From: an uncultured virus (IMG/VR IMGVR_UViG_3300017989_000070)
Taxonomy: Duplodnaviria; Heunggongvirae; Uroviricota; Caudoviricetes
Length of the DNA stretch: 61,072 nt
Strand: one strand, 5' to 3'
IMG/VR virus record: IMGVR_UViG_3300017989_000070
Shown: positions 12,249-57,451 of the stretch, one piece after another
How the letters are laid out: every line of letters starts with the position of its first letter
Position numbering within the stretch: position 1 is the first letter of the stretch
Program-made: the position numbers and the translations under genes
The notes under the pieces: model-generated
What the model was told of the DNA's origin: nothing
Seen by the model: only the letters and a program-made list of their open reading frames with translations
The model's database searches: none

Positions 12249-12416
12249 TCATCGGGGGCCCTCGACGTAGATGTCCCACTCGACGCTCTCACGAGGGTCG
12301 TAGAGGTTCATCGTTCCCGGACCGCCAGGAGGGCAGCATGGGTTCCTGAACGGGACATCCTTGTGGCTCCACGAGTACCACACCAGGGCTCCGAGGCCGA
12401 GAAGTACGAAGTGCAT
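12249..12416 (-). CDS. small membrane protein containing RNP motif
   Basis: MHFVLLGLGALVWYSW..FRNPCC; TACCAT 6 nt upstream of ATG. Confidence 0.5.
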   Translation of the reverse strand: MHFVLLGLGALVWYSWSHKDVPFRNPCCPPGGPGTMNLYDPRESVEWDIYVEGPR

Positions 12417-12442
12417 GAGCCGATGGTAGAAGGTCGGCCTGG

Positions 12443-12871
12443 TCAGCGCAAATGGTGGGGGCGGGGTGTCATGCCTCGTGCGCCCGGCCCCGCGCACTGC
12501 ACGAGGTCCTCGTCGTAGTAGATGACCCACCCGGTCAACCACTCGGCAAGGATGTCGGCACGGCGCTCCTCGTCAGTCGAGTAAGGGACACGGAGGGACT
12601 CACATACCCGCTGAAACCCCTGGTCCGAGAGCAGTCCGAGGTCGAGGATGTGCCCGGCCTCATGAGCCAGAACTCCGCGAAGCCGCGAGACTTTCCCGGT
12701 GACTAACTCAGGATGAAGACGGAGTACGACCGGATGAGATAATTCGACATCGGCGAAGTGGCGGGGCTTTTCCCGCACCTCGGGAGTGACCTCGATCAAG
12801 ACCTCGGGCGAGCCGGGGAACATGGCCTCGACCTGGCCGTAGATGCTCTCCCACTCGCCGCGCCAGGTCAT
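12443..12871 (-). CDS. zincin-like metallopeptidase (HExxH)
   Basis: GVLAHEAGH..EERRAD. Confidence 0.7.
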   Translation of the reverse strand: MTWRGEWESIYGQVEAMFPGSPEVLIEVTPEVREKPRHFADVELSHPVVLRLHPELVTGKVSRLRGVLAHEAGHILDLGLLSDQGFQRVCESLRVPYSTDEERRADILAEWLTGWVIYYDEDLVQCAGPGARGMTPRPHHLR

Positions 12872-13485
12872 ACGATGGACCGGAGGTCAGGCACGCGAAC
12901 ATTGTCGGGGATGGCGACATCATAGACTTCGAGCCACGCACCGGGGCCGAACTCGCCGTCGTTCTCCACGATGGACTCGTGGGTGATGACCTTCTGGGCG
13001 AACCAGCCGAACCTGTCGGGCTCGATGTCGTAGAGGCGCTTCTTCGGAAAACCGGGGACCTCCGGCGCGTTCGAGGGCGAGCCCCGCATCACGCCGATGT
13101 GGAAGGCACGCCGGGTCATCTCCGCCGTCCACTCCCAGACCTCGGTGTCGTCGCGGTAGAAGTAGAAGTCGGGCTGCTTGCCGCGCAGGTGGTTGTCACG
13201 CTTCAGGATGGTGTAGTAGGCGTTGAAGAACGCGGCCATGCCCACCAGTCGGCCCATGCCGTTCAGGTTGGTCCGTGTCGCCTTCAGGTGCTCCCGGAGC
13301 TTCTCGAAGTCGAAGCCCCCCTCGTGGAGCGCGTCCCAGAGTACGAGGGCGTACTCCAGATCCCCGCCCTTGGGCGTCGGGACCTTGATGTGCATCGGGA
13401 GGATGTGCTCCTCCCAGTACGTGTACCCGTCGTAGGCGTCGAGGAGCCCAGCGAGAAACATGTTCTGCGCGCGTGCTGTCGTCAT
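12868..13485 (-). CDS. hypothetical protein
   Basis: 205 aa, ATGA overlaps on both sides. Confidence 0.7.
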   Translation of the reverse strand: MTTARAQNMFLAGLLDAYDGYTYWEEHILPMHIKVPTPKGGDLEYALVLWDALHEGGFDFEKLREHLKATRTNLNGMGRLVGMAAFFNAYYTILKRDNHLRGKQPDFYFYRDDTEVWEWTAEMTRRAFHIGVMRGSPSNAPEVPGFPKKRLYDIEPDRFGWFAQKVITHESIVENDGEFGPGAWLEVYDVAIPDNVRVPDLRSIV

Positions 13486-13799
13486 CGGTAGAAGCCCTCA
13501 TCGTCGTCGAAGGCGACGGCGATCCAACCCCGGTCGAGGTCCTTGTAGAAGAAGACGACCGGCGGATGCCCACCCTCTGGCCCCTGCTGCCGGTACTGTT
13601 CTTCGTAGACGACCTCGGCGACAGTGCGTAACGTGTACGGGCGGAAACGGTGCTCTTCGGAGGGGTCGTTGGGATCGAAGTACGCGGCCTCGCCGTCGTC
13701 CATGTCCGCCTCGATGTACTGCTGCCCGTCCAGATCGAAAAGCTCGACGACCTCGACGTAGTCCTCGATGTCGTCGTCCCAGTATTTCCTCGTGTTCAT
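13482..13799 (-). CDS. acidic hypothetical protein
   Basis: 105 aa; TAGAGT 6 nt upstream of ATG. Confidence 0.65.
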   Translation of the reverse strand: MNTRKYWDDDIEDYVEVVELFDLDGQQYIEADMDDGEAAYFDPNDPSEEHRFRPYTLRTVAEVVYEEQYRQQGPEGGHPPVVFFYKDLDRGWIAVAFDDDEGFYR

Positions 13800-13803
13800 G
13801 ACC

Positions 13804-14067
13804 CTACTCTACCGCGTTAATGCGCCGCAGGAAAACCGGCGTCCTGGGCCCCACCCACGCGCCTTCGATGTTGAAGCTGAAGAACTCCTCGGCCTCCTCG
13901 TGGGTCATGCCGTCTCTGTCGATCATCTTCTGGATGATGGCTTCGCCGTCGTACACGACCAGAAGCTCGCGGCCCGGGGAGTATGCTGTGCCGAGAATGC
14001 AGTCGTCCCACCCGTCCGCCATGAGGAGATCGGAGTCCACCTCGGCGAGTCGGTCTCGAATGTCCAT
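13804..14067 (-). CDS. conserved phage hypothetical protein
   Basis: ADGWDDCILG..EEAEEFFSFNIEGAWVGPRTPVF, a widespread phage family. Confidence 0.8.
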   Translation of the reverse strand: MDIRDRLAEVDSDLLMADGWDDCILGTAYSPGRELLVVYDGEAIIQKMIDRDGMTHEEAEEFFSFNIEGAWVGPRTPVFLRRINAVE

Positions 14068-14098
14068 GTGCCGAACGTAGCAGAGGAAGAGCGAGGAG

Positions 14099-14698
14099 TC
14101 AGCTTTCCCACGTCGCGAGGAACGCCTTGACCGACTTGCCAGCGGCTGTCGTGATGCCGCCTGCCTCGATGGTCTTCGCCGCGATCGTGAGGCGCTTCTC
14201 GACGGTGGCGAGGTCGGAGTTCGCCACCGCGTAGTAGACCAGCAGATCCGCCAGCGACGAAGGTTCGAGAAGCTCACCAGTCAGGAGCCAGTGCACCTCC
14301 ATCGTCGTGGTGTATGCCTCGGCCTCGTAGGCCGCGCGCTTGGCCGAGTCGATGAGGTAGTGGAAGGAGAACTTCATCCCGCCGTCGCGGGTGAACTGGT
14401 GGGCGTGCTGGTTCTCGTGCGCGAGCGTGCGCGCCTGGGAGATGAGCCCCCTGCTGGTGTCCTCCCCGGCCAGGTCGAAGGAGAGGTAGATGGTGCGCCC
14501 GATGGTGGTCGTGAACCGCTGGAGGAACAACTCCGCGTCCATCACGCCCAGGTCTTCGAGGAACTGGGAGACCATCAGCATCTCGGCAGCGTCCGCCTTG
14601 TCGACGAGCCGGGTGCGGAACTCGGCGGACAGGTGGTCGTTGAGCGCGAGAACGAACTCGGGGGTGACCTCTACCACGGCGTCTCTCCTTTCACCCAC
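14099..14698 (-). CDS. zincin-like metallopeptidase (HExxH)
   Basis: TTTIGRTIY..TLAHENQHAHQF..YEAEAY. Confidence 0.7.
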   Translation of the reverse strand: MGERRDAVVEVTPEFVLALNDHLSAEFRTRLVDKADAAEMLMVSQFLEDLGVMDAELFLQRFTTTIGRTIYLSFDLAGEDTSRGLISQARTLAHENQHAHQFTRDGGMKFSFHYLIDSAKRAAYEAEAYTTTMEVHWLLTGELLEPSSLADLLVYYAVANSDLATVEKRLTIAAKTIEAGGITTAAGKSVKAFLATWES

Positions 14699-15813
14699 CG
14701 CACGCAGCGAAGGATGTGGTCCGGGCGCACCCGGTACTCCAGCATCGAGGGCAGGTACTCCTCGACGCCTTCCATGTCGACCTCGGCGGCGAGGTAGCCC
14801 ACGCCAGCTAGATCCACGTCCACGAAGTGCTCGGCCTCGGCCATCGAGAAGACCGGGTTGTAGCGCACGCCTGCGCCCTCGGCGAAAGCGAGGTAGGCGG
14901 TGTAGAACCGGAAGACTTCCTCGGGCTCAGCTTCCGGTGCCAGTTCCTGGCCCCAGGAGCCCCGGTGGTAGTCCTGAACCTGCTGGAGCACCCCGTCCCC
15001 CCTGACGTGCTCCAGAAGCTCCTGTACGTCGATCTCGCCGCGGGAAATGAGCACCGCCTCGACCAGGCACCGGGCGATCTCCGCGGCGATCTCCTCGTCG
15101 GCAGTGAAGCTCACGGTCGGGAGCACTCCGCCCATCTGGCCGATGCCTCGCTGACCCTTCGGCCCCCCGGGGTCGAAGCCTTCAGCGCACAGAGGGCCTG
15201 CGACGACCGAGGCGTGGTAGAGCACCTCGACCGGCTCGGTGACGGGGTCCTGACCCGTGATGAGCCAGATCATGCCCTGGACGCGGTCCCTGCCGTCGAG
15301 CAGGACCTCGACGAGGTTCGCGGCGGTCTGGGGCAGGTGGGCAAGCTCGACAGCGATGTCACGAGTGAAGCCCATCGGGTCATCACCGAAGTCCTTCTCC
15401 CACCCTTCGAGGATTCGTTGCTCGCCTGCGTCCTCGATCGCGACGAGAGCCTCCTGGGGCTGGGCTAGCTCGTCGAGCACCTCGTCAATGTGCTCCAACA
15501 GCCGGGGGAGCCACTTCCGCGCATCATCGGGGAACTGAAGAACCGCATCGAGCGGGAACCAGTCATGGCTCGCGGCGCGATCGAGCCAGTAGAACGTCTG
15601 CTCCATGTCGAGGTTGTAGCCACTGGAATCGCGAACGTCCACGTAGCTGAACCCCCAGCGGACCCACTCCCACCAGGGGTCGTCTTCATTGCCGATGCTC
15701 CTAATCCTGTCGAGGACGTCAAGCAGGTATCGGCTGCGCCCGGCAAGCTCATCACGAAAGCTGCGGAGCCACTCGATGCGCCAGATAGGTGGCGTGGCGA
15801 CGTTACGCTGCAT
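14671..15813 (-). CDS. ADP-ribosyltransferase-like protein
   Basis: LYHAS..EGF..TVSFTADEEIA..LEYRV (H-S-E type ART strands). Confidence 0.6.
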   Translation of the reverse strand: MQRNVATPPIWRIEWLRSFRDELAGRSRYLLDVLDRIRSIGNEDDPWWEWVRWGFSYVDVRDSSGYNLDMEQTFYWLDRAASHDWFPLDAVLQFPDDARKWLPRLLEHIDEVLDELAQPQEALVAIEDAGEQRILEGWEKDFGDDPMGFTRDIAVELAHLPQTAANLVEVLLDGRDRVQGMIWLITGQDPVTEPVEVLYHASVVAGPLCAEGFDPGGPKGQRGIGQMGGVLPTVSFTADEEIAAEIARCLVEAVLISRGEIDVQELLEHVRGDGVLQQVQDYHRGSWGQELAPEAEPEEVFRFYTAYLAFAEGAGVRYNPVFSMAEAEHFVDVDLAGVGYLAAEVDMEGVEEYLPSMLEYRVRPDHILRCVRWVKGETPW

Positions 15814-15826
15814 GTTCACTCCCACA

Positions 15827-16498
15827 TCAAACCCAAGCAAACTTTCTATTTTCCACAACCCCGACAAGAAGGTCGAGAGACAATCGTTTCGGGAAAAGTA
15901 TCTCCGCCATCCTTTGTGCCGCCCGTGGGTTGATCGGAATCTGCCCGTCAATGCTAGCAAAATTCAAAGCTGCTTCAATAAGATCGTTGGGTTTTTCACC
16001 CTCGCCGCACGCCCAGTCTATCCACCTCAAGGCGTCACTGCCGGTAAAACGAGTCACAGATTGCAGTTTGCGGAACTCCTGTAGAACCTTGTCCGGCTCC
16101 ATGAACCAAAAGTTGTCGTGGTTTTCTTCATCTTCCCACAGATCCTCGCCATGCCTCATGGCCAGGAGTCTGTAAGACCCGTCAAGATCTTTCATTCCTA
16201 CAACTGCGCCTTTTTCGACAAGCTCACGAGGATCAAAAACAAAAATATATCCTTCATCAGATCGAAGCTCCGAAGGTCTTCCTAGCGTAAGAAAAACATG
16301 TCCTGCATCCCCCGCGAGCCAATCCGTAGGGTAGGTATGTTCCGAGTAACCCCCCAACTCCTCAAGAGAGAGCAGCGCCCCTCCCTCCACGATATTCCGA
16401 TAAATGTCGGAAATATCATCCCACTCTGAAAAAATACTATGATAAGCCCAGCAACCCTCGGGGTACTCAGAGCCTTGAGCCGTCAACGGATTACGCAT
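15827..16498 (-). CDS. ART-fold protein (DarT-like), starts MRNP
   Basis: AYHS..IVEGGALLSL..VFLTLG..FVFD..AEILFPKRLSL; lower GC. Confidence 0.6.
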   Translation of the reverse strand: MRNPLTAQGSEYPEGCWAYHSIFSEWDDISDIYRNIVEGGALLSLEELGGYSEHTYPTDWLAGDAGHVFLTLGRPSELRSDEGYIFVFDPRELVEKGAVVGMKDLDGSYRLLAMRHGEDLWEDEENHDNFWFMEPDKVLQEFRKLQSVTRFTGSDALRWIDWACGEGEKPNDLIEAALNFASIDGQIPINPRAAQRMAEILFPKRLSLDLLVGVVENRKFAWV

Positions 16499-16751
16499 GT
16501 CTCACCTTCACGCGGAAGACCGGCGTGGGGGTCGGCCCCAGGATTTCGAGCACCCCCACGATGTCGAACAGTCTCTCGCGCCCAGGGCTCACGAGCTTCA
16601 TCTGGTCCCCGATCTCCACGACCTGCGCACGGGGGACGAGATCACGAGGGCGGGGCAAGTCGAAGACATCCATGTCGCCGAGCCCGTCGAGAACGTCCTC
16701 GGGTACATCGACGACATGCACCCACTGCCCCTCTACAGGTCCGGCAGGCAT
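16491..16751 (-). CDS. hypothetical protein
   Basis: 86 aa, overlaps both neighbours. Confidence 0.5.
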   Translation of the reverse strand: MPAGPVEGQWVHVVDVPEDVLDGLGDMDVFDLPRPRDLVPRAQVVEIGDQMKLVSPGRERLFDIVGVLEILGPTPTPVFRVKVRHA

Positions 16752-16954
16752 ACGTGGTCTCCATCACCGTCAACACGGCACACGAAGGGGAAGTCCCCCT
16801 CCACGTCCCCGCAGTCGGCCACGACCTCCCAACGGCCCCGGGCGTCGCAGATCTGCGCGACATCCTCGGCGCAGCGGGTCTGGAGGTGCTGACAGAGGGG
16901 AGCGCCTGCGGGGCAGGCAGTGAGCACGAGCGCGAAGATCAACAGGTAGCGCAT
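16733..16954 (-). CDS. small Cys-rich lipoprotein
   Basis: Lipobox LTAC plus six further Cys; GGAG RBS. Confidence 0.7.
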   Translation of the reverse strand: MRYLLIFALVLTACPAGAPLCQHLQTRCAEDVAQICDARGRWEVVADCGDVEGDFPFVCRVDGDGDHVCLPDL

Positions 16955-16963
16955 GTTCCTCTC

Positions 16964-17140
16964 CTACGTCACGTCCTCGAATGGTACGGGGCACCCCGGG
17001 CAGGTGTCCACCGACGCCTGCTCGTCAGGCGAGAGATTCTTCCAGAGCTTCTCCATCTCGGAGCGCACGCGCTTGGCCTCGCGGCCTCGGGCTTCGACAA
17101 GCTCCTCGCGCAGTTCGAGGTAGCGATCGAGGTCCGTCAC
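16964..17140 (-). CDS. hypothetical protein (58 aa, not in ORF track)
   Basis: GTGA overlap; VTDLDRYLELREEL..CPGCP. Confidence 0.55.
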   Translation of the reverse strand: MTDLDRYLELREELVEARGREAKRVRSEMEKLWKNLSPDEQASVDTCPGCPVPFEDVT

Positions 17141-17706
17141 GCCGTGGCCTCAATAGGGTCGTCAAGCTCCTGCCCATTGATTTCAGTGATGAGGATGGGC
17201 GCACCCTCGTCGACTCGGACCTCACACTCTTCCTCACCGAACTCGATGAAAGCGGCGTAGCCCCCCTCCCAGTCGATGTTCTCGGGGCGGACGACACCCG
17301 TCAGCACGAAGTCGGGGAGAACCGCACTCCCCCAGTGAGACTGTGCACAGTGGTACTCGTAGGACCAGAACACGCCCACGCCCTTGCGGCGGATGTACCT
17401 CCGGTCGCGGACCGAGATCGAGCGGTACAGTTCGACCGCGTCCTTCTCCTCGGCTTCGAGCATGAACCCCACGTAGAAGTCGGTGCGCTCCAGAACCTCG
17501 TTCGCCTTCACGATCTGCTCGAAGAGGTCGTAGTCTTCCGCTTCGGCCTCTTCAATATCCCGCCCTGCAAGGGCAAGCACACCGTCGTAGCTCATCAACT
17601 CGTAGGGCAGCGGGACATTTGCGTGGTCTTTCTCGTTCTCCAGCCACCACTCGATGGCCTTCTTTTCATCGCGAAGGTGATCAGGGAGTCGCGGGTTGCG
17701 CTTCAT
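17137..17706 (-). CDS. ADP-ribosyltransferase-like protein (R-S-E), starts MKRNP
   Basis: LYRSI..GVFWSY..EEECEVRV; paralog of 19885-20436. Confidence 0.65.
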   Translation of the reverse strand: MKRNPRLPDHLRDEKKAIEWWLENEKDHANVPLPYELMSYDGVLALAGRDIEEAEAEDYDLFEQIVKANEVLERTDFYVGFMLEAEEKDAVELYRSISVRDRRYIRRKGVGVFWSYEYHCAQSHWGSAVLPDFVLTGVVRPENIDWEGGYAAFIEFGEEECEVRVDEGAPILITEINGQELDDPIEATA

Positions 17707-17719
17707 GAGAACCTCTCCT

Positions 17720-18466
17720 TCACCAGGGCAACCCCTTGCGCCAGTTCTTGTACGCCTTGGAGTTCCTCTTCAACCAACTCATGGCCTCGATCGTCGCGTT
17801 CGCCGAATCGAATGTGCGCACCTGGCCGGTGTCCGCGGAACGCGCCAGCACGTAGGTCCCCTCGTCGTACAACGTGCCGGTGCGCTGCGACATGAGGCTC
17901 CCGACGAAGTACACTCGCCATTCGCGAGGGCCGACCTTCTTGGCGAAATCATCCCCCTGCGCTTGGTCTCTGCCGAACTTCTTCATCTTGAAGCCGAAGG
18001 GCCACATGTGGCCTTTGATGGCCTCTTCGCCTTGCCACTCCCGGTACGGGTTCTTCTCCGTCACCAGCGCCATGATGGCGCTCGCGAGCGGCGTCGGCTG
18101 CTTCGTCGGCGACTGGAAACCGCAGGGTATGCCCTCGACGTAGAGCACCTCGGGGTCCTCGAACTGGGACGCGGTGGGGTCGTAGATGATGCCCTCCTCG
18201 TCCTCGATCCACCAGTGGGTGCCCCGCTCGCCGTCCTCGTCCTCGTAGACCGCGTAGAAGGGCTTCAGCCCCGCGTCCTTGCCCCCGGCGAGGTAGTAGA
18301 CCGCCTCGGCCCCCGCGGCGCAGAAGCCGGTCGTCGCCGGGCACCCCACCTCGTGCATGGGGAGGTAGGTCCGCCGCCACCTGGGGGGCGCGGCGCACGC
18401 GAGGTCGAGCGCGTTGTCCTCGATGGCCTGCTCGACGGCGAGGGTGATGCGGTCGAGGCGGGTCAC
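17720..18466 (-). CDS. papain/transglutaminase-fold protein plus a second domain after KNP
   Basis: GFCAAGAEA..THWW..YDPTASQF (Cys-His-Asp); GTGA overlap. Confidence 0.65.
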   Translation of the reverse strand: MTRLDRITLAVEQAIEDNALDLACAAPPRWRRTYLPMHEVGCPATTGFCAAGAEAVYYLAGGKDAGLKPFYAVYEDEDGERGTHWWIEDEEGIIYDPTASQFEDPEVLYVEGIPCGFQSPTKQPTPLASAIMALVTEKNPYREWQGEEAIKGHMWPFGFKMKKFGRDQAQGDDFAKKVGPREWRVYFVGSLMSQRTGTLYDEGTYVLARSADTGQVRTFDSANATIEAMSWLKRNSKAYKNWRKGLPW

Positions 18467-19329
18467 AACTGCCTCGCCAGGTCGGCGTCGGTCGTGTGGA
18501 ACGTCTTGCCACCCATGACGAACGAGTAGACACGCGCCATGCCCCACGCCTGCTGGGAAGCACCGGGGCGATGCCCGGTACGCCACGCCGCCATCCCGCG
18601 GTCGTAGACCTCTTGGAGGATGCGCCTGGGTATGCCCGTCGCCCTGGCGACCTTGTCGACCGACCCTGCGTTCTCCTCGCCGAACTCCTCGTGGTAGGCC
18701 CTGGTGTACTTCGAGGGCCGGGTCTTCTTCCCCTTGTCGCTCGGGAAGGGCTTGTAGGCGGCGGGGTCCTCCCAGTCCATCTCGGCGCGCTTCTCGAACT
18801 CCTTGAGCCGCCGCTTCTTCGCAGCGCCCTTCACGCCAGTCGTGTAGCGAGCGGGAGGGTTCTGCACACGAGAGTGATAGAGCATCGTCTTGACGCTCTC
18901 GGGGTCACCGAGGATCGACTCGACGCCGAAGTGCTTGTCCTCCAGATCGACAAGCTCGTCGAAGGTGACCCACGCCCACTCATCGGTCTCCCAGTTCGCC
19001 TCCGCGTCGAACTCCCGCGGCACGACGCCGAGAAAGTTGTAGTAGGAGAAGTCCCCGTCCCGGAAGACGAGCATCGGCACGAGGTGAGGCCGGAGCCGGG
19101 AGCGCGTCTCCTCGCGGAACTCGCGCAGCGCGGCCTCCTCGGGGTCCTCGGACACCCAGCCCTCGTCGGTGTACACGTCATCGACCTTGCCGCCGATGGT
19201 GCCCCATGTGCCCGGCTCGTTGACCTGCCACGAGCGCAGCGCCACGAGGAACCTTCCGGTGTCTTCCGCAACAGGGATGAGACCCGCGCCAGCCCTGCCC
19301 CAGTACTCGGGGTTCTGTCGCCAAAACAT
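18463..19329 (-). CDS. NUDIX hydrolase fused to a DUF5824-like domain
   Basis: GGKVD..EDPEEAALREFREET Nudix box; C-terminal VYDRGMAAWRTGHRPGASQQAWGMARVYSF. Confidence 0.85.
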   Translation of the reverse strand: MFWRQNPEYWGRAGAGLIPVAEDTGRFLVALRSWQVNEPGTWGTIGGKVDDVYTDEGWVSEDPEEAALREFREETRSRLRPHLVPMLVFRDGDFSYYNFLGVVPREFDAEANWETDEWAWVTFDELVDLEDKHFGVESILGDPESVKTMLYHSRVQNPPARYTTGVKGAAKKRRLKEFEKRAEMDWEDPAAYKPFPSDKGKKTRPSKYTRAYHEEFGEENAGSVDKVARATGIPRRILQEVYDRGMAAWRTGHRPGASQQAWGMARVYSFVMGGKTFHTTDADLARQL

Positions 19330-19483
19330 GAGGGGATAGTAGCACGGCTGAATGGCCTTTGAAGGCGCCAGAAGGCGCTTCTGAGGGCTCGTAGGGGCCC
19401 GAGAGTACCCTGGGTCACCCCGGGGGCCTTCCGGCCAGCAGAGAGCGTTATCAGAAGGGGCTCAAGAGGGTGTTTTCCCTGGC

Positions 19484-19888
19484 TCAGGGCCAGGTAATGC
19501 CCCGCTCCCGGGTCCTCTCCCGCCATGACTCCTGCGGGGGCGCGACCTTGACGAGCCAGTCGAGGATCTTCGAGGGATCGACACCGATGGGGAAGACCTT
19601 CGTGCGGTACTTCCCGCGCGAGCGCACGACCTGGGCGAACACCTTGTCGGGCCTGTCCCGGGCGGCAAAGACGCCGAACTCCCGGAACTGCCCCCCGGTC
19701 ATGATCTCCGCCGCGCCCCCGAGCCAGCCCTTGACCCGGTCGTCGCGCCTGTAGAGGTTCGAAGCCCCCTCACCACCAGCCTCGGCGTCGAAGCCGCGGA
19801 AGGAGCCGTAGAGGTCGAAGAGGTCTGGTGCCAGTTCAAGAAAGAGGCGGCGTGCTTCATCGACTTGGTACTAGGTCAAGCGGCTCAT
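19484..19888 (-). pseudogene. hypothetical gene interrupted by an in-frame TAG at codon 6
   Basis: ATG 19888 overlaps the upstream stop; TAG at 19871-19873; frame then open to 19484. Confidence 0.5.
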
Positions 19889-20436
19889 GCCGTCGCCTCG
19901 ATAGGTGTTGGCAACTCCTCGCCATTGATGCCAATGATGGTCACGGGCACACCCTCCAAGAGACGTATCTCACACTCCATGTCACCGTAGTTGGCGTACA
20001 GGACCAAGCTGTTGTACCAGTCCACGTACTCCGGGCGCACAACGCCGAAGAGAACGAACTCCTCGTAGCCCTCCGCGTATGTGCCCCAGTGTGGTTGTTC
20101 GCAACCCTCACGGAAAGACCAGAAGACACCCACCTCATCCATCCGTATGCCCTGTCGACCTTGTGCCGTCAAAGCTCTCCAGATGAGGATGCCGTCCTGT
20201 TGTTCCCACTCCTTCATCAATGAGATGTACTCCTCGATATTGTTCAACATATCGAGAACCTTGTGCCACTCATCATCACGTTGTGGATCTTCGTTGTACT
20301 TCTCCAGAAACTCTTCGGCCTCGACGTGGTTGTGCACCTCCCGGGGGAAGTCGTACTCCCGACGAAGATCCTGAACGATGCGATCAAAAGAAGTAGAAAC
20401 ATCTGGGAAATCCCCGGGTGCTGGCAGCTTCCTCAT
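19885..20436 (-). CDS. ADP-ribosyltransferase-like protein (R-S-E)
   Basis: IWRAL..GVFWSF..DMECEIRL; ends PIEATA, as does 17137-17706. Confidence 0.65.
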   Translation of the reverse strand: MRKLPAPGDFPDVSTSFDRIVQDLRREYDFPREVHNHVEAEEFLEKYNEDPQRDDEWHKVLDMLNNIEEYISLMKEWEQQDGILIWRALTAQGRQGIRMDEVGVFWSFREGCEQPHWGTYAEGYEEFVLFGVVRPEYVDWYNSLVLYANYGDMECEIRLLEGVPVTIIGINGEELPTPIEATA

Positions 20437-20912
20437 GACAACCTCAACCTGAGCCCTCGTGCCTCCGCCTCGAACGCCGCGATGGCCTCGGTCATCGCCT
20501 GGTCCTTGCCGCTGGCGACGTAGTCGCTCTTCTCCCCGAAGCGCCCCGTCCACTCGTCGTAGTCGTTGCGGTCGATCGAGATGGCGCTGATCGTCCAGTC
20601 TCTGAAGCCACGCTTGACCTCCAGCGCCGAGAGATTCTTCCCCCAGGACTCCAGGCGGTCGAGGCTCTGGTGGACCTTGCGCGCCAGCTTCCGCGTCGCG
20701 GGGTCGCCCGTCAGCGTGGCGAGGCAGTCGCCGCCCATGGGGCCCTTCGAGGTCAGGAAGACGTACTTGATGGGGCTCCCGCAGCGGATGCAGTAGGGCT
20801 CCTCGCCCACCATCGGCCCGAGCGCCGCGTGCGCCGGTTCCGTGCCTGCGGTGACGAAGCCCTCGATGTCGAGGTCTTCGGCCAGATCCTTGTCGCCCTT
20901 GCGTCGTCTCAT
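20433..20912 (-). CDS. putative Zn-binding protein
   Basis: CIRCGSPIKY..GGDC. Confidence 0.6.
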   Translation of the reverse strand: MRRRKGDKDLAEDLDIEGFVTAGTEPAHAALGPMVGEEPYCIRCGSPIKYVFLTSKGPMGGDCLATLTGDPATRKLARKVHQSLDRLESWGKNLSALEVKRGFRDWTISAISIDRNDYDEWTGRFGEKSDYVASGKDQAMTEAIAAFEAEARGLRLRLS

Positions 20913-21304
20913 TCCACCCACGCAGCAATCACAGGGACATCCCCATAACCCCGATCTCTTGCAACAGCGAGACGATGAAGACCGTCCCAGAGATCAACAG
21001 GATAATCTTCATCACCCAGCAGCAGCAGGAGAGGAGCATCGTCGAGGAAGCCCCCATCGTCCAGCCACGACTGAACACGTTCGTACCTCTCCTCGAAGTC
21101 CTCGGGGTCGGTGCGCTCCTCCAAAGCGATCTGGTCAGAAGCCCCGACAGCGAGAAAGAGATCCCAGACGCTCACAGAAAAACGCCGCCAATCGAGAAGC
21201 TCATCATCCCTCGTCAGAAGATCATCGGCATTCGGGCTCTCCACCAAGACATCCACGGGCTTGGCTTCTTCATACAGCGCAAAGATGCGTTCTTCTGGTG
21301 TCAT
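20909..21304 (-). CDS. ParB/sulfiredoxin-fold protein
   Basis: PLLL..LWDGLHRLAVA..DVPV. Confidence 0.7.
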   Translation of the reverse strand: MTPEERIFALYEEAKPVDVLVESPNADDLLTRDDELLDWRRFSVSVWDLFLAVGASDQIALEERTDPEDFEERYERVQSWLDDGGFLDDAPLLLLLGDEDYPVDLWDGLHRLAVARDRGYGDVPVIAAWVE

Positions 21305-21804
21305 TCCCACCCCTCGACATCCGCGACCGGCACCACCGCCACGAGCCACGAGGGCTCGAAGCGCACGGGCTCACCGGGCTCGCGGCTCACCCACTCCTTC
21401 TCGCTGTCCTTCCACACGAACGACTCAAGCTCCGCCTCGCGCCACGCGGCCTCGACGTCGTCCTCGTCGGGCTCCCAGAAGTCGTACTCGTCGGGGTCGA
21501 TGTCCTCGGGCGGCTCGTAGAGCCAGGTCAGGTCGAGTTGCTCGCGCCAGCCCTCACCCGCGATGTACGCGGCCTGCTCGGGGTGAGCGTCGTACCACTC
21601 CTCGTCGTACTCGACGCGGTCGAGCGAGGGGCCGAGCTTCGAGCGGTCGAAGACGAGCAGCACGTCGTTCGCGCTGATGTCCCCGCCGATGATGGGCTCC
21701 TCGGCGAAGGAGACGAAGGCCTCGTAGTTCTTGGGGCGCACCTCGCCGCTCGCCTGGATGGCGTGCGCGCCGCCGAACGAGGTCGTGTGGTAGAGGTGCT
21801 TCAC
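21301..21804 (-). CDS. ART-fold protein
   Basis: LYHTTS..IQASGEVRP..FVSFA..LVFD..EKEW. Confidence 0.6.
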   Translation of the reverse strand: MKHLYHTTSFGGAHAIQASGEVRPKNYEAFVSFAEEPIIGGDISANDVLLVFDRSKLGPSLDRVEYDEEWYDAHPEQAAYIAGEGWREQLDLTWLYEPPEDIDPDEYDFWEPDEDDVEAAWREAELESFVWKDSEKEWVSREPGEPVRFEPSWLVAVVPVADVEGWE

Positions 21805-22007
21805 TCCGCCTCCAGTGGGGCCACCATCGTGGGAGTGTCCTTCTCGTCGCTGGTCTTGAACTCGCGGATGTTCTCAGCCTTGGCCTGGACCAGCGCGATG
21901 TGAAGAGCGAGCGCGAGCGTCACCCCCACGATGCCCACGACCAGGGGAGTCGAGTACTTGTCCGCGGGGAGTTCGATCTCCTGGCCGATGAGCTTGAGCT
22001 TGATCAC
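21801..22007 (-). CDS. small single-TM protein
   Basis: PLVVGIVGVTLALALHIALV. Confidence 0.6.
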   Translation of the reverse strand: MIKLKLIGQEIELPADKYSTPLVVGIVGVTLALALHIALVQAKAENIREFKTSDEKDTPTMVAPLEAE

Positions 22008-22687
22008 TCCAGCGCCTCACGGACCTGAGCATTCCCACGCTCATGTGGGTAGTCCATCAAGTCCTGAATGCGGTTCCGCGTCACGATCATGTAGATGTAG
22101 GGCTCCCCCGAGGCGAACGCCCCGAAGGTGCGGTGGTTGCCGTCGCGGATCTGCACCCAGAAGTCGCCGAGGTCCCCCTCGTCATTGGCGACGGCAGCAG
22201 CAAGCTCCTCTTCGAGCCGAGCCTTCTCCTCGGCCCACTCCTCGGCGTCGTCCTCCGGGTCGAGGTACAACTCGTCGGCGATGTACTCGTCGCCCTCCGC
22301 GAGGTAGCGGTCCAGTTCCTCGTCGCCCGTCGTGTACGGCTCCTCTTCGTCGGCATATTCGAGGGACTCCTTGACCAAGTCGAGGTCGATGACCCCAACG
22401 TCACCGTAGGGCGCGGTGAAGACGAGGCGCTCCTCGGCCTGGTCGACGCCCGAGACGATGGCCGCGAGCTTGTCCGCGTCGAAGATGTTCCCCGCGATGG
22501 CCCGGACATTGTGGGGGTAGACGCGGATCATGCGCCCGTCGATGCCGTCCCAGATGATGTTGCGCCCGTAGTACGGGGCGGAAGGCTCAAGCGCCCCCGC
22601 GGCGGTCTTCGGGTAGAAGTCGTCGAGTTCGCCGTAACCGCTCTCGGCAAGTTCAGTGAGATACCCTACATCCGAAGGATTTCGCAT
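22004..22687 (-). CDS. ParB-like domain protein, starts MRNP
   Basis: QIRDGNHRTFGA with acidic insertion; TATCAT 6 nt upstream of ATG. Confidence 0.65.
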   Translation of the reverse strand: MRNPSDVGYLTELAESGYGELDDFYPKTAAGALEPSAPYYGRNIIWDGIDGRMIRVYPHNVRAIAGNIFDADKLAAIVSGVDQAEERLVFTAPYGDVGVIDLDLVKESLEYADEEEPYTTGDEELDRYLAEGDEYIADELYLDPEDDAEEWAEEKARLEEELAAAVANDEGDLGDFWVQIRDGNHRTFGAFASGEPYIYMIVTRNRIQDLMDYPHERGNAQVREALE

Positions 22688-22705
22688 GCAGCGATGATAC
22701 AGAAG

Positions 22706-23606: not shown

Positions 23607-24206
23607 TTACCCCCTGGCGTAGCCGCCGAATACGTAGCCGAACTCGAAGGTGCGGTCCGCTGGCACAACTGGGTCCACGTCCCTGTCGAGCGCCACAAAA
23701 CGTACCGATACGACCATGAAATCGTTGATCGCCTTCTCCTCGAAGGCGGTAATTGCCTGACCCCCACCAGCGGCGAAGGTCCCGAAGGGGTGCTGGTTGT
23801 CCGGGTCGTTGAGAACCGGAAGACGGGTGATCCTCCAGCGCCGCTCCGCGATCTGGGTTCCGGGGTTCCGCGGGTCGCGCGAGGACACCAACTCCGTAGG
23901 CGCCGCCCGGCGGTTGCTGAACAGAGGGTCGGTCACGTCCCGGATACGGCTGGGACTGGTGTAGAAGTAGGGCGCGATCTCGATCCACTTGACGTCGGTG
24001 GGGTTCGTCGGGGCAGCGAAATCTTCGTAGAGGTAGAAAATCAACTGCTGCCCGGTGCCCACGAAAACCGGAGCGGCTGCACCACCGATCAGACGTTCGG
24101 GCTCAGTGATAGCCCCGCCGCCAAAAGTCAGACTCGTTCCAGTGAGTGTCGAGAAAAAGGGCCCGACCCCCTGCATCACAGAATCTCTCGTCGGACCTTT
24201 GAACAT
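23607..24206 (-). CDS. beta-rich hypothetical protein (possibly structural)
   Basis: 199 aa; GGAGG RBS. Confidence 0.6.
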   Translation of the reverse strand: MFKGPTRDSVMQGVGPFFSTLTGTSLTFGGGAITEPERLIGGAAAPVFVGTGQQLIFYLYEDFAAPTNPTDVKWIEIAPYFYTSPSRIRDVTDPLFSNRRAAPTELVSSRDPRNPGTQIAERRWRITRLPVLNDPDNQHPFGTFAAGGGQAITAFEEKAINDFMVVSVRFVALDRDVDPVVPADRTFEFGYVFGGYARG

Positions 24207-27154: not shown

Positions 27155-27643
27155 TCAGATCTTCTCTCCCATGACCTTCCACCGCCCGATGCCCACGGCG
27201 TCGAGCACGTTGTGCTTCAAGCTCTCGGGCACGCCACGCAGCCCCGCCTGAAGCGCCAGCAGTCCGTCGCGGTCGAGACGCTCGATGACGCGCCTGTGGT
27301 TGATGTCCTTGGGTGTCTGCCCCTTCCAGCCCACGGGCTCGACCACCTCGACAGATCCGTGCATCACCATCGCGATGGCCCCTCCGACGAAGGCCAGGTC
27401 GATCAGGTCGTTGGGCTGCATGTACTTGTTGCGCGGGTAGAGCCGGGGCTTCTCCACGATCACGGCGTGGCCCTCGTGGTCGTCCGCCTCGAAGAGCGTG
27501 TCGGAGAGCTTCTCGTACAGGTCGCTCGCGATGTCACCGAGGACCTTCTCCTTCGTGCGCACGAGGCCGCAGGCGACGAGCTTACCGTCGCCCCAGAGGG
27601 CCCAGCCCACGCAATGCTTGCCGGGGTCAAGCGCCAGCAGCAT
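27155..27643 (-). CDS. RuvC-like Holliday junction resolvase
   Basis: LALDPGKHCVGWA..VIVEKP..WKG..HNVLDAVGIG. Confidence 0.8.
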   Translation of the reverse strand: MLLALDPGKHCVGWALWGDGKLVACGLVRTKEKVLGDIASDLYEKLSDTLFEADDHEGHAVIVEKPRLYPRNKYMQPNDLIDLAFVGGAIAMVMHGSVEVVEPVGWKGQTPKDINHRRVIERLDRDGLLALQAGLRGVPESLKHNVLDAVGIGRWKVMGEKI

Positions 27644-29564
27644 CGGGGCGGTCCTCCCAGGGGATGAGCGTGCCGCTCGCGTCGAAGACAGGCTCCGCCT
27701 CCTTGCGCCAGCGCCTCATCAGCGCGGGGCTCGCCTTGATCGGCACGTCGGGGCACCACTTCTGCCCCTCCTCGCACATGATGCGCTCGACGACCTGCGC
27801 GGCTCGGGCGGCGTCCTCCTCGGGGCCTTCGAGGATGTACTCGTCGTGGATGAAGTTCCAGACCTTCCACCCGCGAAGCTCGCCGATCTCGCAGGCCATC
27901 ACGAGCGCGAAACCCGCGGCCTTGGCGAGGTCAGCGGCGAGCCCCTGGAAGAAGCTGTTGCACGCCACGGTGTAGAGCACGTCAGCGCGCACGCGCTTCG
28001 AGGCCCACTGGGTGATGGTCGTGAGCTTGTAGTCCTTGCCATCACGCACGACCTCACGCCAGGGGAGGTCGTTGCGGATGCGGTCGAAGTACCCGCCCAT
28101 CTCCCGCCACCTGCCGAACCAGCGGTCCTGAAGCGACTCGGCGAAGACGGACGAGATCTCGATGCCGTACCCCCGGGCGTAGTCGCAGAACGTGCCTGCC
28201 GCCATCCCACCAGGGAAGCCGAAGTTCGCGACCTTCGAGATCTGCCGCGCCTCCTTCACCTCCTTGCGCCGCGGGTGGTTCAGGTCCTTGTAGATCGCGA
28301 GCGCCTCGTCATAGGGGATGTCGAGAAGCTCCGCGCCGAGCGCCAGGTGGGGGTCACCCCCGGCGATGAGAACCTTGGCAAGCTCGCTCTCCCCCAGCAT
28401 CCACAGGCAGACCTGGGACAACGTGCAAAGCTCCAGGGTGTCGTAGTCGCTCGCGAGGAAGACGTTCCCCTTCGCGGGGACGAAGCACTCGCGCTCGCCC
28501 ACGGCGCGGCGCATGTTCTGGATCTGGTAGCCGTTGACCGGGCTCCCCTTCGAGGGCTTGCGGCACGAGGTGCGGCCCGTCTCCATGAGTGAGTCGAAGC
28601 TCGGGTTGATAGGCGCGTCCACACCCGCGTAGAGCGCCTGGATGCGGGTCAGGAGGTTCTTGCGGCTCCCATACCGCTGGTAGGCCATGAGAATCTCGTC
28701 GCCCGTGGCCTCGCAGGCGTCCTCGTCGAGCGACGTGTAGCCCTTCTTCGTCGTGGGCGTCTTGATGTTCTTCGCCTTGCACACCTCGTCCATGCGGTCG
28801 CGAGCAGCCTGGAGGTTCCGCCGCCCTCCCGGGCGCACCAGGCCTTTCTCGATGAGCACGGCCTTGTCCTTCTCGTACAACTCGCGCTCGGACTTCTCGA
28901 AGGCCTTGATCTGCTCGTAGTCCGTGCGGACGCCTGCCGCGCCGATGAGGTGCATCGTCCACGCCGCGCGAGCCTGGCGATACTCGTCGGGGGAGATAGG
29001 GCTCTTCCCTTGCTTCAGGAACACGTGACGAGTGGACTCCACGTCGTGGGCGGCGTACTGGCGCGCGGCCTCGGGCCACGCCGTGAACGGGATGCCCCAC
29101 AACTCGCTGTAGCGCAGCCGCCAGGGGTCGTTCGCGTCCTTCTTGTCGCCGTACCGGGCCGCGAGGGTGGCGAGGCTGAAGCCCTTGCCGCGAAGCTGGA
29201 AGAAGCGCCCGTTCGCGATCAGCTTCAGCTTCTCGCGGACCATCGTGTCGGTGATCCGGTCGTTGGCGTAGGCGTCGAAGATGAGGGGCATCAGGTCGGG
29301 GTACTGCCGCCCGATGACCAGAAGGTCGAAGGCGATGTTGTGGCCGACGATCAACTCGTCGCTGCGAAGGATGCCCTCGACCACGTTGCGCACCTCGTCC
29401 ACGCCCATGACGAAGACGCGCACGGGGCCGTCGTCCTGGGCAACCTGAAGGCAGACGAGCGGCGGGGCGAGCAGGCCGGGGCCTATGAGATACGTCTCAG
29501 TATCAAGGACGAACAAGTGATCACCTCGAATCGAGTGTTTCCGGCCACGTGCAGCCGGAAACAC
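27627..29564 (-). CDS. polA: family A DNA polymerase with 3'-5' exonuclease domain
   Basis: DTET, GHNIAFD, YAAHD; TGRTSC; DYDTLEL (motif A); RQISKVANFG (B); IHDEY (C). Confidence 0.95.
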   Translation of the reverse strand: MFPAARGRKHSIRGDHLFVLDTETYLIGPGLLAPPLVCLQVAQDDGPVRVFVMGVDEVRNVVEGILRSDELIVGHNIAFDLLVIGRQYPDLMPLIFDAYANDRITDTMVREKLKLIANGRFFQLRGKGFSLATLAARYGDKKDANDPWRLRYSELWGIPFTAWPEAARQYAAHDVESTRHVFLKQGKSPISPDEYRQARAAWTMHLIGAAGVRTDYEQIKAFEKSERELYEKDKAVLIEKGLVRPGGRRNLQAARDRMDEVCKAKNIKTPTTKKGYTSLDEDACEATGDEILMAYQRYGSRKNLLTRIQALYAGVDAPINPSFDSLMETGRTSCRKPSKGSPVNGYQIQNMRRAVGERECFVPAKGNVFLASDYDTLELCTLSQVCLWMLGESELAKVLIAGGDPHLALGAELLDIPYDEALAIYKDLNHPRRKEVKEARQISKVANFGFPGGMAAGTFCDYARGYGIEISSVFAESLQDRWFGRWREMGGYFDRIRNDLPWREVVRDGKDYKLTTITQWASKRVRADVLYTVACNSFFQGLAADLAKAAGFALVMACEIGELRGWKVWNFIHDEYILEGPEEDAARAAQVVERIMCEEGQKWCPDVPIKASPALMRRWRKEAEPVFDASGTLIPWEDRPDAAGA

Positions 29565-43927: not shown

Positions 43928-45271
43928 ATGACACCGGACGAGCTTTTGGTCGAGTGCGCTGACGCGCTTCAATCCTGGCAGGGTCTCGGGCACCTCGGTG
44001 CGACGGAGGTGCTCGCATGGTGGGACGAGGACGAGCCCCGCTTCGTGTTCCGCGGCCCGACGCTGCGCATGCAGAACTACCTGTTCCGCGAGCCCTACCA
44101 GATCAACAACTACCAGGGCTACCTCGGGAGTTCCCTCAACTCCGCCTTCGGCTCGAACGTCTACAACAGCTTGACCACTCCCCGGGCGGACATCACCGAG
44201 ATCATCGAGATGGTCCAGCAGGTGCTCGTGGACGCCTTCGCGTCCGAGGGCCACGAGGCATATCCACGTGTGACCCTCATGCCTGCCGAGGGGAGCCCGT
44301 GGAACCCCGATGACGACGCGACCCCGTTCTACAGCGCGAAGAAGCGCAAGTTCTTCGAGACCCCACGGCCCGACTACCTGACGGTGACCCAGGCTCGTGA
44401 TCCCGAGACCGGCGGCACCGTGGACGCCCTCGGCGTCGACTTCTGCAAGCTCGTCGACACCATCGGCGCGGGAGACCGCAGCGGCAGCTTCGTTCTCGAC
44501 GGCCTGGACGAGGGAGTGCTCGTGACCCACTGCCTCGGGTTCGAGCGAGGCGTGGATGCCGATGGTGTGTCGGGGTTCGTCAACTCGTGCGGGGGCCTGC
44601 TCTTCCCCTCGCTCGCCGTGGGGCCTCTCCCTGCCGCGAACTTCGGCCCCATCTGCCTGGTCTTCGACCCGATGATCGTGCTCCAGTCCATGAAGCCCTA
44701 CAAGAAGGGCAGGGGCGCGTGGCCCATCGTCACGTACACGACCGACGTGTGGACCGCGACGATGTCCACCTTCCTCGGCGACGCCGCGGTCCAGTGCTTC
44801 GAGCAACTGACCGGCCACGCCGGGGACTTCATGTACAACTACGAGCGGCACTTCTGGATTCTGGGCCCCCCGGTCGACGTGGATGCGGGGCCAGCCACGG
44901 CGAAGATCGTCAAGGGGACCAAGCAGCTTCGGGCGGCGCTCAAGCGCCGGGGGAAGACCTGGCACCGGGACATCGACGCCCGGGAGATCGAGGAGACGCA
45001 GGCGATTCTCGGCGAGGACCGCTACCCCTACCTCGAAGCGAAGTCGAACGGCATCGTGGGCGTGGACGCCATGGTCGGCTGTGCCTACCCCGAGGCCTTC
45101 GCCGCCGAGGCCGAGCGGTTCCTCGGCGCCATCGGGTTCCGCGGCGCCTACATCTCCCTCGACATGCCCTACGCCAGCCACGATCCCGTGCTGACATACG
45201 ACTGGTCCTGGGCCGTCCACGACGCCGTTCTGCACTCGGGCTTGACCGTCCGAAATGTGCAGCTTGGCTGA
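43928..45271 (+). CDS. ART-like domain protein (polyvalent-protein type)
   Basis: LVTH..GGLLFPSLAV..FGPICLVFDP..YTTDVWT..YLEAK; TAGCAT 6 nt upstream of ATG. Confidence 0.5.
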   Translation: MTPDELLVECADALQSWQGLGHLGATEVLAWWDEDEPRFVFRGPTLRMQNYLFREPYQINNYQGYLGSSLNSAFGSNVYNSLTTPRADITEIIEMVQQVLVDAFASEGHEAYPRVTLMPAEGSPWNPDDDATPFYSAKKRKFFETPRPDYLTVTQARDPETGGTVDALGVDFCKLVDTIGAGDRSGSFVLDGLDEGVLVTHCLGFERGVDADGVSGFVNSCGGLLFPSLAVGPLPAANFGPICLVFDPMIVLQSMKPYKKGRGAWPIVTYTTDVWTATMSTFLGDAAVQCFEQLTGHAGDFMYNYERHFWILGPPVDVDAGPATAKIVKGTKQLRAALKRRGKTWHRDIDAREIEETQAILGEDRYPYLEAKSNGIVGVDAMVGCAYPEAFAAEAERFLGAIGFRGAYISLDMPYASHDPVLTYDWSWAVHDAVLHSGLTVRNVQLG

Positions 45272-47899: not shown

Positions 47900-48111
47900 G
47901 ACTCCTCCACCAGTTCGACCTCGCACATGCCGCCGATCCAGGCCCAGTACCGGCGCTGGCTCTGGCTGTTGTCCCAGGTCAGGCCGTCCTTCGGCCAACC
48001 CCAGCGCAGCCCGTAGATCTCGTCGTTGGTCAGACACACCCGCGAGGGGTGGTCCATGTCCGGCGGGTTGACGGTGAAACGGTCGCCGGGCTTGAGTTCG
48101 TGCGCTTTCAT
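47896..48111 (-). CDS. hypothetical protein
   Basis: MKAHELKPGDRF..; ATGA overlap. Confidence 0.6.
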   Translation of the reverse strand: MKAHELKPGDRFTVNPPDMDHPSRVCLTNDEIYGLRWGWPKDGLTWDNSQSQRRYWAWIGGMCEVELVEES

Positions 48112-48677
48112 ATCGCCAGCCTCCCCTTGCAGATCTTGCAGCGGTAGACGGAGCCTCCACGGATCTTGCGGACCTTCTGAGCGGTGATCTCGTGTACCCG
48201 GCAGTCGCAGTGAGCCGGGTATCGCTTCTGCCGTCGTCGAAGCCCGGTGCGGTCGACGGTGTGCGTCGTGCGCGGCTCGACGCCTGCCTCGCGCATGGTC
48301 GCCTGCCACTCCTCGCCGTGCGACTTGATCCTGATGCGGCCATTTCGGTACTGCGCCACGATGTGGCAGACCTCGTGGACCACTGTCTCGTGGCGCTCCT
48401 CCTCGGTGGCACGGGGCCAGAGCGGGACCGAGAAGCGCACCCGGGCGAGGTACAGGTGGGCCCTCGGGTATCGGATGCCGATCGACGCCTTGACCCCGGG
48501 CGACTGCTCCTCGCTCATGTCGAGGAAGAGCGCGTCGCCGAGCGACTTCGTGTGCCGGGGGCCCCACTCGATGTAGAGCCCCGACATCAGCGGGTGCACG
48601 CGGTCGAAGCCGAGGCGCTCGAAGGTGTCGAGCACCTGCTGCTCCGCCTTCTGCATCTGCTCGTGGGTCACGCTCAC
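48108..48677 (-). CDS. SprT-like zinc metalloprotease
   Basis: TVVHEVCH, HGEEWQ, HCDC..YRCKIC. Confidence 0.85.
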   Translation of the reverse strand: MSVTHEQMQKAEQQVLDTFERLGFDRVHPLMSGLYIEWGPRHTKSLGDALFLDMSEEQSPGVKASIGIRYPRAHLYLARVRFSVPLWPRATEEERHETVVHEVCHIVAQYRNGRIRIKSHGEEWQATMREAGVEPRTTHTVDRTGLRRRQKRYPAHCDCRVHEITAQKVRKIRGGSVYRCKICKGRLAI

Positions 48678-57022: not shown

Positions 57023-57451
57023 TTATAGCCCGTCCTCGGCGACGATCCTCTCCGCCCACGCCCAGCCCTCGTCGCCGCCCCAGAGGAGCCACGCGACGTA
57101 GCCCGGCGACGGGCGGTCCTCGTCGCCCCAGTCTTTGTGGCGACGGTCGCTCTGGTGGCGCGAGAAGTAGGCCTTCATGCGCTTGATCGAGCGGGGCGGG
57201 ATCTTCTTGCCGCTCGCCAACTGGACCGCTCGCGCGATCCCGATGTCCGTCCCGCCGGGGCGGGAGAGGCCGCGGACCTCCTCGTTGTAGATGCGCAGCG
57301 CGATGCCAAGCTCGGCGTTCCGCTGCACCGCGACCGGCGGCGTGTACTTCGCCTCTCCTGGCGCTCCTGCGGGTCGGCCCCCGGCGGTCTTCTCCAGGGC
57401 CTGGAGGACGTGCTTCTCGCCCTTGGCGAGGAACCGGCGCGTGGACGTCAC
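57023..57451 (-). CDS. conserved phage domain of unknown function
   Basis: GGTDIGIARAVQLA..KRMKAYFSRH..VAWLLWGGDEG. Confidence 0.75.
   Translation of the reverse strand: MTSTRRFLAKGEKHVLQALEKTAGGRPAGAPGEAKYTPPVAVQRNAELGIALRIYNEEVRGLSRPGGTDIGIARAVQLASGKKIPPRSIKRMKAYFSRHQSDRRHKDWGDEDRPSPGYVAWLLWGGDEGWAWAERIVAEDGL

Follow-up and report, generated by a model that had tools for sequence, protein, structure and literature searches.

An asparagine-centred seam bordering swappable enzyme modules, and a candidate zinc protease, in large and apparently tailless prokaryotic viruses

A shared motif among dissimilar genes

The stretch analysed here (the window) is 61,072 nucleotides of an uncultured virus (IMG/VR record IMGVR_UViG_3300017989_000070), a segment of 64% GC which carries PolA, primase-polymerase, SNF2 helicase, fibre-like and transglutaminase-like genes and is probably about half of a 123,072-bp contig. 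An earlier note on positions 12,249 to 22,687 had pointed to an Arg/Lys/Gln-Asn-Pro motif ([RKQ]NP), shared by the starts and domain junctions of unrelated predicted enzymes, and had suggested that it is an address or cleavage signal for enzymes packaged in the virion. All of the quoted motifs are present where that note placed them, in the following genes, which like their products are named hereafter by the coordinate of the first codon.

22004 to 22687, minus strand: ParB/Srx-fold protein by its structural model, starting MRNP (motif 22676-22684); leaderless, TATCAT box at 22694-22699
18463 to 19329, minus strand: NUDIX and DUF5824 protein (Pfam), starting MFWRQNP (WRQNP, 19309-19317), with a VQNP seam at 18856-18864; leaderless, TACTAT box at 19336-19341
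17720 to 18466, minus strand: protein of two parts, EKNP (18047-18055) following its Cys-His module (phrog_12251, residues 44-131)
17137 to 17706, minus strand: putative ADP-ribosyltransferase (ART)-fold protein, starting MKRNP (17692-17700); label from ART motifs
15827 to 16498, minus strand: putative ART-fold protein, starting MRNP (16487-16495); label from ART motifs
14671 to 15813, minus strand: putative ART-fold protein, starting MQRNV (15799-15810), plausible as a relaxed form of the seam
12249 to 12416, minus strand: 55-aa protein, a hydrophobic N-terminal segment followed by FRNP (12339-12347)

The internal copies lie close to domain edges: VQNP occupies residues 155-158 of the 19329 protein, whose NUDIX domain ends at residue 130 and whose Pfam DUF5824 domain begins at residue 159, while EKNP (residues 137-140 of the 18466 protein) follows a PHROG match that stops at residue 131, and FRNP spans residues 23-26 of the 12416 protein. 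ADNP, which had been counted into the same code, does occur in the 4921 and 57002 proteins (2 versus 0.22 expected), but that comparison is post hoc and the two proteins align with each other only at E=0.15, which does not sustain its inclusion. A 72-aa membrane protein of a relative (G001:C1:11342-11560), similar in size to these two and with no shown homology to them, carries QADNP between two hydrophobic segments.

The family labels proposed at the outset fared unevenly. Pfam confirms both domains of the 19329 protein, and the ParB-like label of the 22687 protein is confirmed at the level of a modelled ParB/Srx fold: its AlphaFold2 model has a predicted local distance difference test score (pLDDT) of 96.8, with residues 1-6 as coil, and the top eight matches among 48161 chains are all of ParB/Srx type, with modest Z scores running from 6.6 (root-mean-square deviation 1.9, 78 aligned residues) to 4.5. 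Across its family an R-D-G-N-H-R motif is nearly invariant, and the protein has no Pfam or PDB sequence match and no Foldseek match at E<=0.001. The ART labels of 16498, 17706 and 15813 found no such backing, since neither these proteins nor 20436 and 21804 have a Pfam or PHROG match at E<=1; all five are proteins that we take to be ART-like from ART motifs in their sequences. For the 'papain-like' module of 18466 the only match is YunG (E=0.15).

We called 96 genes in the window with a codon model and hand curation (three dropped, two added, two starts moved). Four of them carry [RKQ]NP within the first eight residues, as compared with 0.10 expected from shuffling and 0.24 from interior windows, and four was reached in 0 of 5000 trials under either null; the comparison with shuffled controls thus bore out the proposed N-terminal enrichment. 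These four genes are confined to 14 consecutive genes (P=0.007), and seven of the ten [RKQ]NP copies of the window lie inside 12249-22687, which holds 3338 of its 18590 residues. Asn-Pro (NP) overall is barely enriched in the window's proteins (41 versus 33 expected), and the threefold RNP taken alone has a look-elsewhere-corrected value of only about 0.05. The motif is real, and within the window alone it is suggestive, so that replication was needed. The three copies outside the cluster belong to 54938-55639 (PRNPKLV, in a helix-turn-helix protein), 23607-24206 (PRNPG) and 59618-60526 (RQNPQ).

The codons beneath the motif differ from copy to copy by synonymous changes (AAT/AAC; CCG/CCC/CCT/CCA), which rules out a DNA repeat and a DNA-level element such as a promoter or recombination site. 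Paralog expansion is likewise ruled out as the origin of the shared starts: 16498 resembles neither 17706 nor 15813 in sequence, and the folds differ. The starts themselves are credible, with Shine-Dalgarno-like sites at 17706, 16498 and 15813, a TAnnnT box 12 nt upstream of the leaderless 19329 and 22687, and homologs that begin at the same place as the tagged window proteins. Eleven of the 96 genes have such a box beginning 11-13 nt before the start codon, all of them among the 24 without a Shine-Dalgarno site (about 0.7 expected); these leaderless genes include 22687, 19329, 13799, 14067, 12416, 12197, 43928, 51488, 58224, 58883 and 3573, and the accessory ones among them resemble self-contained promoter cassettes. 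The MRNP-bearing gene at 15827-16498 was probably acquired recently: its GC content at third codon positions is 0.50, against 0.8-0.9 in most neighbours (20909-21304, 0.56).

Seams and a minimal zinc protease in related viruses

Related viruses were found through the 22687 family, the transglutaminase-like (TGase) protein and a conserved gene of 250-280 aa (A7), and their near-complete genomes measure 110-300 kb. Five further window genes matter to what follows.

12443 to 12871, minus strand: 142-aa minimal zincin with HEAGH and a downstream Glu, untagged; candidate protease for the Asn seam
19885 to 20436, minus strand: untagged paralog of 17706, starting MRKLP (35% identity in the alignment)
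21301 to 21804, minus strand: ART-like protein without the tag; label from ART motifs
57023 to 57451, minus strand: module that sequence comparison links to the 22687 family, the two being joined by a KKNP seam in a homolog (P0189)
59021 to 59605, plus strand: TGase-like Cys protein (PF01841), a marker of the group and a rival candidate executor

The zincin occurs in 12/12 near-complete relatives, none of them chosen on the strength of it, and with fragments counted in 17/22 and 3/5. An alignment of 63 sequences leaves R, H, E, H, E, D, Y and R invariant, among them H71, E72, H75 and E94, and the window protein thus has the HExxH and downstream Glu that mark the zincin metallopeptidases of polyvalent proteins. 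It has no Pfam match; profile comparison with the PDB gave weak matches to M48 and MJ1213 (E 0.02-0.03), and the nearest neighbours of its Atlas model are M48, SprT and YgjP (template-modelling score 0.53-0.57).

It is at the borders of this domain that the motif is most clearly replicated. Among 156 homologs (the best 150 of 510 from a profile search and 6 from a separate search), 64 are fused on the N side, and 44 of these have NP at that border of the zincin domain (3.0 expected); of the 21 fused on the C side, 9 have it at theirs (1.0 expected). Inside the domain NP is depleted (10/156 versus 21.8 expected). The 75 fused proteins contain 224 NP where 54 are expected, as against 9 versus 10.5 in 80 stand-alone forms, and 12 of the 75 also begin with a tag such as MRRNP. 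The claim that the motif marks module borders therefore stands, with replication in related viruses. Borders without NP usually show N-G, N-A, N-R or N-T, and any Asn is found in 56/64 N-fused (25.9 expected) and 20/21 C-fused homologs (6.6 expected). In ten relatives, all five of the nine zincins that are N-extended or fused have an Asn 78 to 80 residues before HExxH. While the window zincin stands alone, effector domains are fused to it in 75/156 homologs and in three relatives (G017, G014 and G020): a 626-aa protein of G017 reads kinase-like, 17706-type, DUF5661 and zincin, with an x-x-N seam at each joint, and the module fused in G020 matches ART-PolyVal (E 6e-7, just under the cut-off).

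The family of the ParB/Srx-fold 22687 protein behaves alike. NP falls within the first ten residues of 25 of its 80 members (0.9 expected), at a fixed register although the residues ahead of it vary; 20 members could not be anchored, and of the 60 that could be scored 46 have an Asn at the register (17.9 expected), comprising 11/11 fused and 35/49 non-fused forms. One homolog (G001) starts MKYSMNP. As read from these alignments, Asn is the invariant of the seam and Pro is replaceable by G, A, Q, S, T, R or V, with Asp rare at -1 in the seam logos. One subgroup (P0210, P0213-P0216, P0231) has R/K/L-N-V seams, which makes MQRNV of 15813 a fair variant, and the earlier note's near match fits this relaxed rule. 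At the positions of RQNP and VQNP in the window, RANT stands before NUDIX and RRNG before DUF5824 in L175, with Asn in the same register.

Other window modules recur in similar settings. The 17706 protein has a homolog that starts MRRNP (P0009), and its module is the one between Asn seams in the G017 polyprotein; the N-part of 18466 has a stand-alone homolog in G012 and its C-module none that was found, and EKNP is a plausible seam by sequence. Among the relatives' proteins searched, none is homologous to 16498, 21804 or the 55-aa 12416 protein, and the one homolog of 15813 is weak; the hydrophobic segment-seam-module layout of 12416 does occur there.

Ten relatives also reproduce the N-terminal excess, with [RKQ]NP in the first ten residues 12 times versus 2.7 expected (1882 distinct proteins; p=3e-5), as against 6 versus 4.9 in 1542 proteins of control phages, which are mostly AT-rich and to that extent limit the comparison. 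A broader test of [RK]N at N-termini was discarded, being enriched in the control phages too. Nor does the motif belong to the domains as such: among 54 unrelated viral carriers of DUF5824, inspection by eye found NP before the domain in one (L061; the automated flag fell instead on a truncated open reading frame, an artefact), five have starts like the capsid-targeting sequence (CTS) of T4, and distant ParB-type homologs use other leaders. This agrees with the suggestion that the motif is not domain-intrinsic in other lineages.

INPHARED holds no close relative, a search of genome contigs gave two weak matches, and a metagenome scan gave, among the matches listed, at least seven distant loci, none with clear tags. 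Single-protein locus scans with the zincin and with the TGase returned no matches, and the zincin alignment is too diverse for a pattern scan.

The virus group and its candidate capsid protein

None of the 12 near-complete relatives has Terminase_6N, the S77 protease or Gp23, all three of which are present in a T4-like control (G006), and the group thus appears from its gene content to be tailless. The window, itself probably half of a genome, has no Pfam or PHROG match to S77 protease, Gp23 or terminase, and its virus is probably tailless as well. The TGase-like gene is found in 13/13 group genomes and 0/3 tailed controls, a partly circular count, many genomes having been found with it.

In the relatives A7 comes after a large basic polyprotein in which Asn-x sites recur, up to 35 of them in a single core polyprotein. 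On modelling, A7 is probably the capsid protein: its self-association scored 0.83, against 0.00 for the best control, and the mark set for such scores is reached by 20/30 solved pairs and 1/23 single chains. The A7 model used three copies, a departure from the calibration; 71% of contacts or more agree between runs, with pLDDT of at least 73. Its nearest named Atlas clusters are PM2 P2 and PRD1 P3 (0.75-0.77), and a jelly-roll fold is only a lead, with no match to PM2 P2 by hhalign or in PDB or Pfam and a pLDDT of 31.8 for the single-sequence fold. For the FtsK-HerA packaging ATPase, like the jelly-roll capsid protein a mark of Varidnaviria, a census of Walker A patterns yielded no candidate. 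The main text of Yutin 2018 (PMC5894146) mentions neither transglutaminase nor protease.

Two features of A7 N-termini may be set down here. In G011:C1:28387-29862 and G012:C1:215741-216481 the match begins only at residue 16, and G011 has the codons for residues 1-14 some 750 bp farther upstream, which suggests an intron or insertion. In one subgroup (L183, L175, L179-L181) A7 starts MPKIVG, and PKIVS or PKIVG follows many NP tags (P0076, P0115, P0139, P0149, G014 42265, G017 82798); the peptide exposed at NP tags might, by sequence, mimic the capsid N-terminus.

Proposed maturation of cargo and its alternatives

In the light of these results, we infer that the motif is probably a cut site, centred on Asn, at which virion cargo is matured, which is the best reading of the data. 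It would be this lineage's version of a seam, (K/R/A/P/E)-N-(P, also G/A/Q/S/T/R/V), that borders the swappable modules of particle-packaged proteins in large (110-300 kb), apparently tailless prokaryotic viruses. The gluzincin 12443-12871 would cut it during or after assembly, so that both the basic peptides of the core and the enzymes carried as cargo (ParB/Srx, NUDIX, DUF5824, putative ARTs, kinases) would come away from their polyproteins or membrane anchors. In stand-alone enzymes the N-terminal cut would trim one to six residues and leave the end that excision from a polyprotein would also produce. We put the probability of this scheme, zincin included, at roughly 0.55. As to the bond, one G017 protein starts MPKIVSL where its homologs start MRRNPKIVSL or MRSNPKIVSL; the initiator Met being removed, its end would match an N|P product, which favours cleavage between Asn and Pro. 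Metalloproteases that read the P1' residue cut before the residue they recognise, and a cut before Asn is the less favoured alternative here. The earlier note's alternatives of address and cleavage signal are thus narrowed: a border motif with a candidate protease adjoining it stands, the invariant being Asn rather than xNP.

Several observations weigh against this interpretation. Candidate cargo is often bare: paralog 20436, ART-like 21804 and the zincin itself are untagged, as are the DUF5824 protein of G016 and all seven stand-alone NUDIX genes of relatives (0/7), which speaks against an obligatory loading address and leaves a role for the tag as packaging address unproven. Three of the ten relatives (G001, G017, G026) lack [RKQ]NP in the first ten residues, and N-terminal comparators are themselves about twofold enriched ([RKQ]DP 12/6.1, [RKQ]TP 11/5.6), so that part of the [RKQ]NP excess is a general N-terminal effect, which shrinks the 4.4-fold figure. 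Since some of the sequences counted are related to one another, the counts do not stand for independent events. The TGase-like protein co-occurs with the group as well as the zincin does, and weak zincin matches also appear in the tailed-looking G007 and G008 (E 1e-4 to 4e-4). In the 22687 model NP precedes helix 7-16 and is possibly its N-cap. Finally, the window's PolA (27627-29516) matches 0 of 25 related records, which makes the window a distinct branch, and with no capsid or core genes in it either, what ties it to the group is the zincin, the TGase and accessory genes. The best GenBank phage match of this PolA is 28.7%, and the replication module is unlike that of relatives which share structural and cargo genes.

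The TGase-like Cys enzyme could be the one that acts at Asn, by cleavage, transpeptidation, deamidation or cross-linking, the zincin being just another cargo module, seam-bounded like any other. Its presence in every group genome, circular in part, agrees with this, and a cysteine enzyme that reads the side chain, as in legumain-type specificity, would be expected to demand Asn while tolerating variety at the next position. However, it sits among structural genes and no fusion of it into seamed polyproteins was seen in the relatives examined, whereas the zincin is often in such polyproteins, the layout of the self-processing metallopeptidases proposed in the consulted portions of PMC5512222; we regard this alternative as unlikely.

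Less probable is the earlier note's address reading without cleavage, in which the motif stays whole and loads the cargo by docking it onto some component of the capsid, core or membrane. N-terminal copies have almost nothing upstream to remove and are nevertheless conserved amid varying flanks, and they occupy the place of the CTS-like leader in a T4-like phage; but Asn as sole invariant holds little information for a binding address, the densely punctuated core polyproteins look more like substrates for cutting, and many stand-alone cargo homologs have no tag. At similarly low odds, internal seams may be real while the N-terminal copies have no function of their own, being remnants of polyprotein fission, or serve as helix N-caps, a position that Asn-Pro tends to take. 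Paralog 20436, the helix behind the 22687 tag and the stand-alone NUDIX genes of G004 and G017, whose preceding genes end in a seam or a basic tail, would fit; the register Asn kept by 35/49 divergent non-fused 22687 homologs, the variety of folds behind the tags (NUDIX, kinase-like, ParB, putative ARTs) and the N-terminal enrichment in ten relatives would not. Chance, to which the look-elsewhere value of the window alone leaves some room, and spontaneous enzyme-free Asn cyclisation, which the invariant Asn would suit, are both very improbable, given independent replication at domain borders with a 15-fold excess and given that self-cleavage, as at N|P in FlhB/YscU, needs a specific fold while the seams lie in unrelated flexible contexts.

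For cleavage of Asn seams in maturation, known systems offer partial parallels. In adenovirus and varidnaviruses, core proteins are matured by a viral cysteine protease at short Gly-based motifs; alike are basic core precursors cut at short motifs (here a proposal) in a non-tailed particle, and unlike are the zincin candidate, the Asn seam and the prokaryotic host. In the parts of PMC3012670 and bioRxiv 10.1101/2021.01.19.427310 drawn on here, a 10-residue CTS loads internal proteins of T4 and is removed by the prohead protease gp21. The likeness lies in a short shared N-terminal mark on diverse swappable cargo, and in one ParB/Srx family that bears a CTS-like leader in G006 and the Asn mark here. 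The CTS is however about ten residues long, Glu-ended, N-terminal and proven to target, while the Asn mark measures two to four residues, is also internal and repeated, is known from sequence, and in window tags reads M-x(1-4)-N-P with no Glu-ended leader. The T4 analogy drawn at the outset extends in form to the cargo mark but probably not to the enzyme: the apparently tailless group, in its 12 near-complete genomes, has no T4-type prohead protease, and the executor is thus probably the zincin, not a gp21 homolog.

Polyvalent phage proteins, whose processing by zincin metallopeptidases is proposed in the consulted portions of Iyer et al. 2017 (PMC5512222), are likewise strings of conflict domains (ART, ParB-like) with an HExxH+Glu zincin as proposed releaser. 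Those portions name no shared cleavage motif, in contrast to the visible Asn seam, which here is found on stand-alone enzymes and on basic core proteins as well; the zincin of these viruses often stands alone, and the carriers are apparently tailless. ARTs and Nudix enzymes are often packaged in virions, according to the portions of PMC9503650 consulted. A literature search, supplements not covered, found no description of the Asn tag among the entries listed; what the present analysis brings are the stand-alone tagged enzymes, the relaxed Asn rule, the T4-like leader swap and the 12/12 link to a protease in large genomes.

That leader swap is seen in the 22687 family, of which, by eye, about 8/80 start with a basic-hydrophobic leader ending in Glu and about 12/80 with a hydrophobic MDP-L/I-T segment. 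One Glu-ended form (P0219) belongs to the T4-like G006, where up to 11/213 proteins match the leader pattern. Together with DUF5824 lacking NP elsewhere, the swap makes it plausible that ParB/Srx and DUF5824 domains are virion cargo whose label follows the host virus. Each unrelated large phage with the 22687 family (G006-G010; L089-L106) has its own leader common to neighbouring genes, for example MKKLFESW.., MSIKKIIKEE.., MNRF.K...L or MSELIKKLLRE. More tentatively, tailless prokaryotic viruses of 110-300 kb may as a group load and mature swappable cargo by a one-residue Asn code read by a minimal zinc protease, with domains moving to and from T4-like phages by exchange of the N-terminal label only. 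If the cut-site reading is right, there would be a readable rule for which proteins are packed and processed, making virion contents predictable from sequence, and a small protease with an unusual Asn specificity that accepts Pro next to the cut; and with one enzyme family carrying different leaders in this group and in T4-like phages, cargo loading by non-tailed viruses becomes directly testable.

Two further window genes are zincin-like, 48108-48677 and 14099-14677 (SprT-like and DUF6782-like); the SprT-like copy is untagged, and its homolog in G005 lies inside a seamed protein starting ..VARNP. A leaderless gene at 43928-45271, encoding 447 aa of no known family, is conserved in 5/10 relatives.

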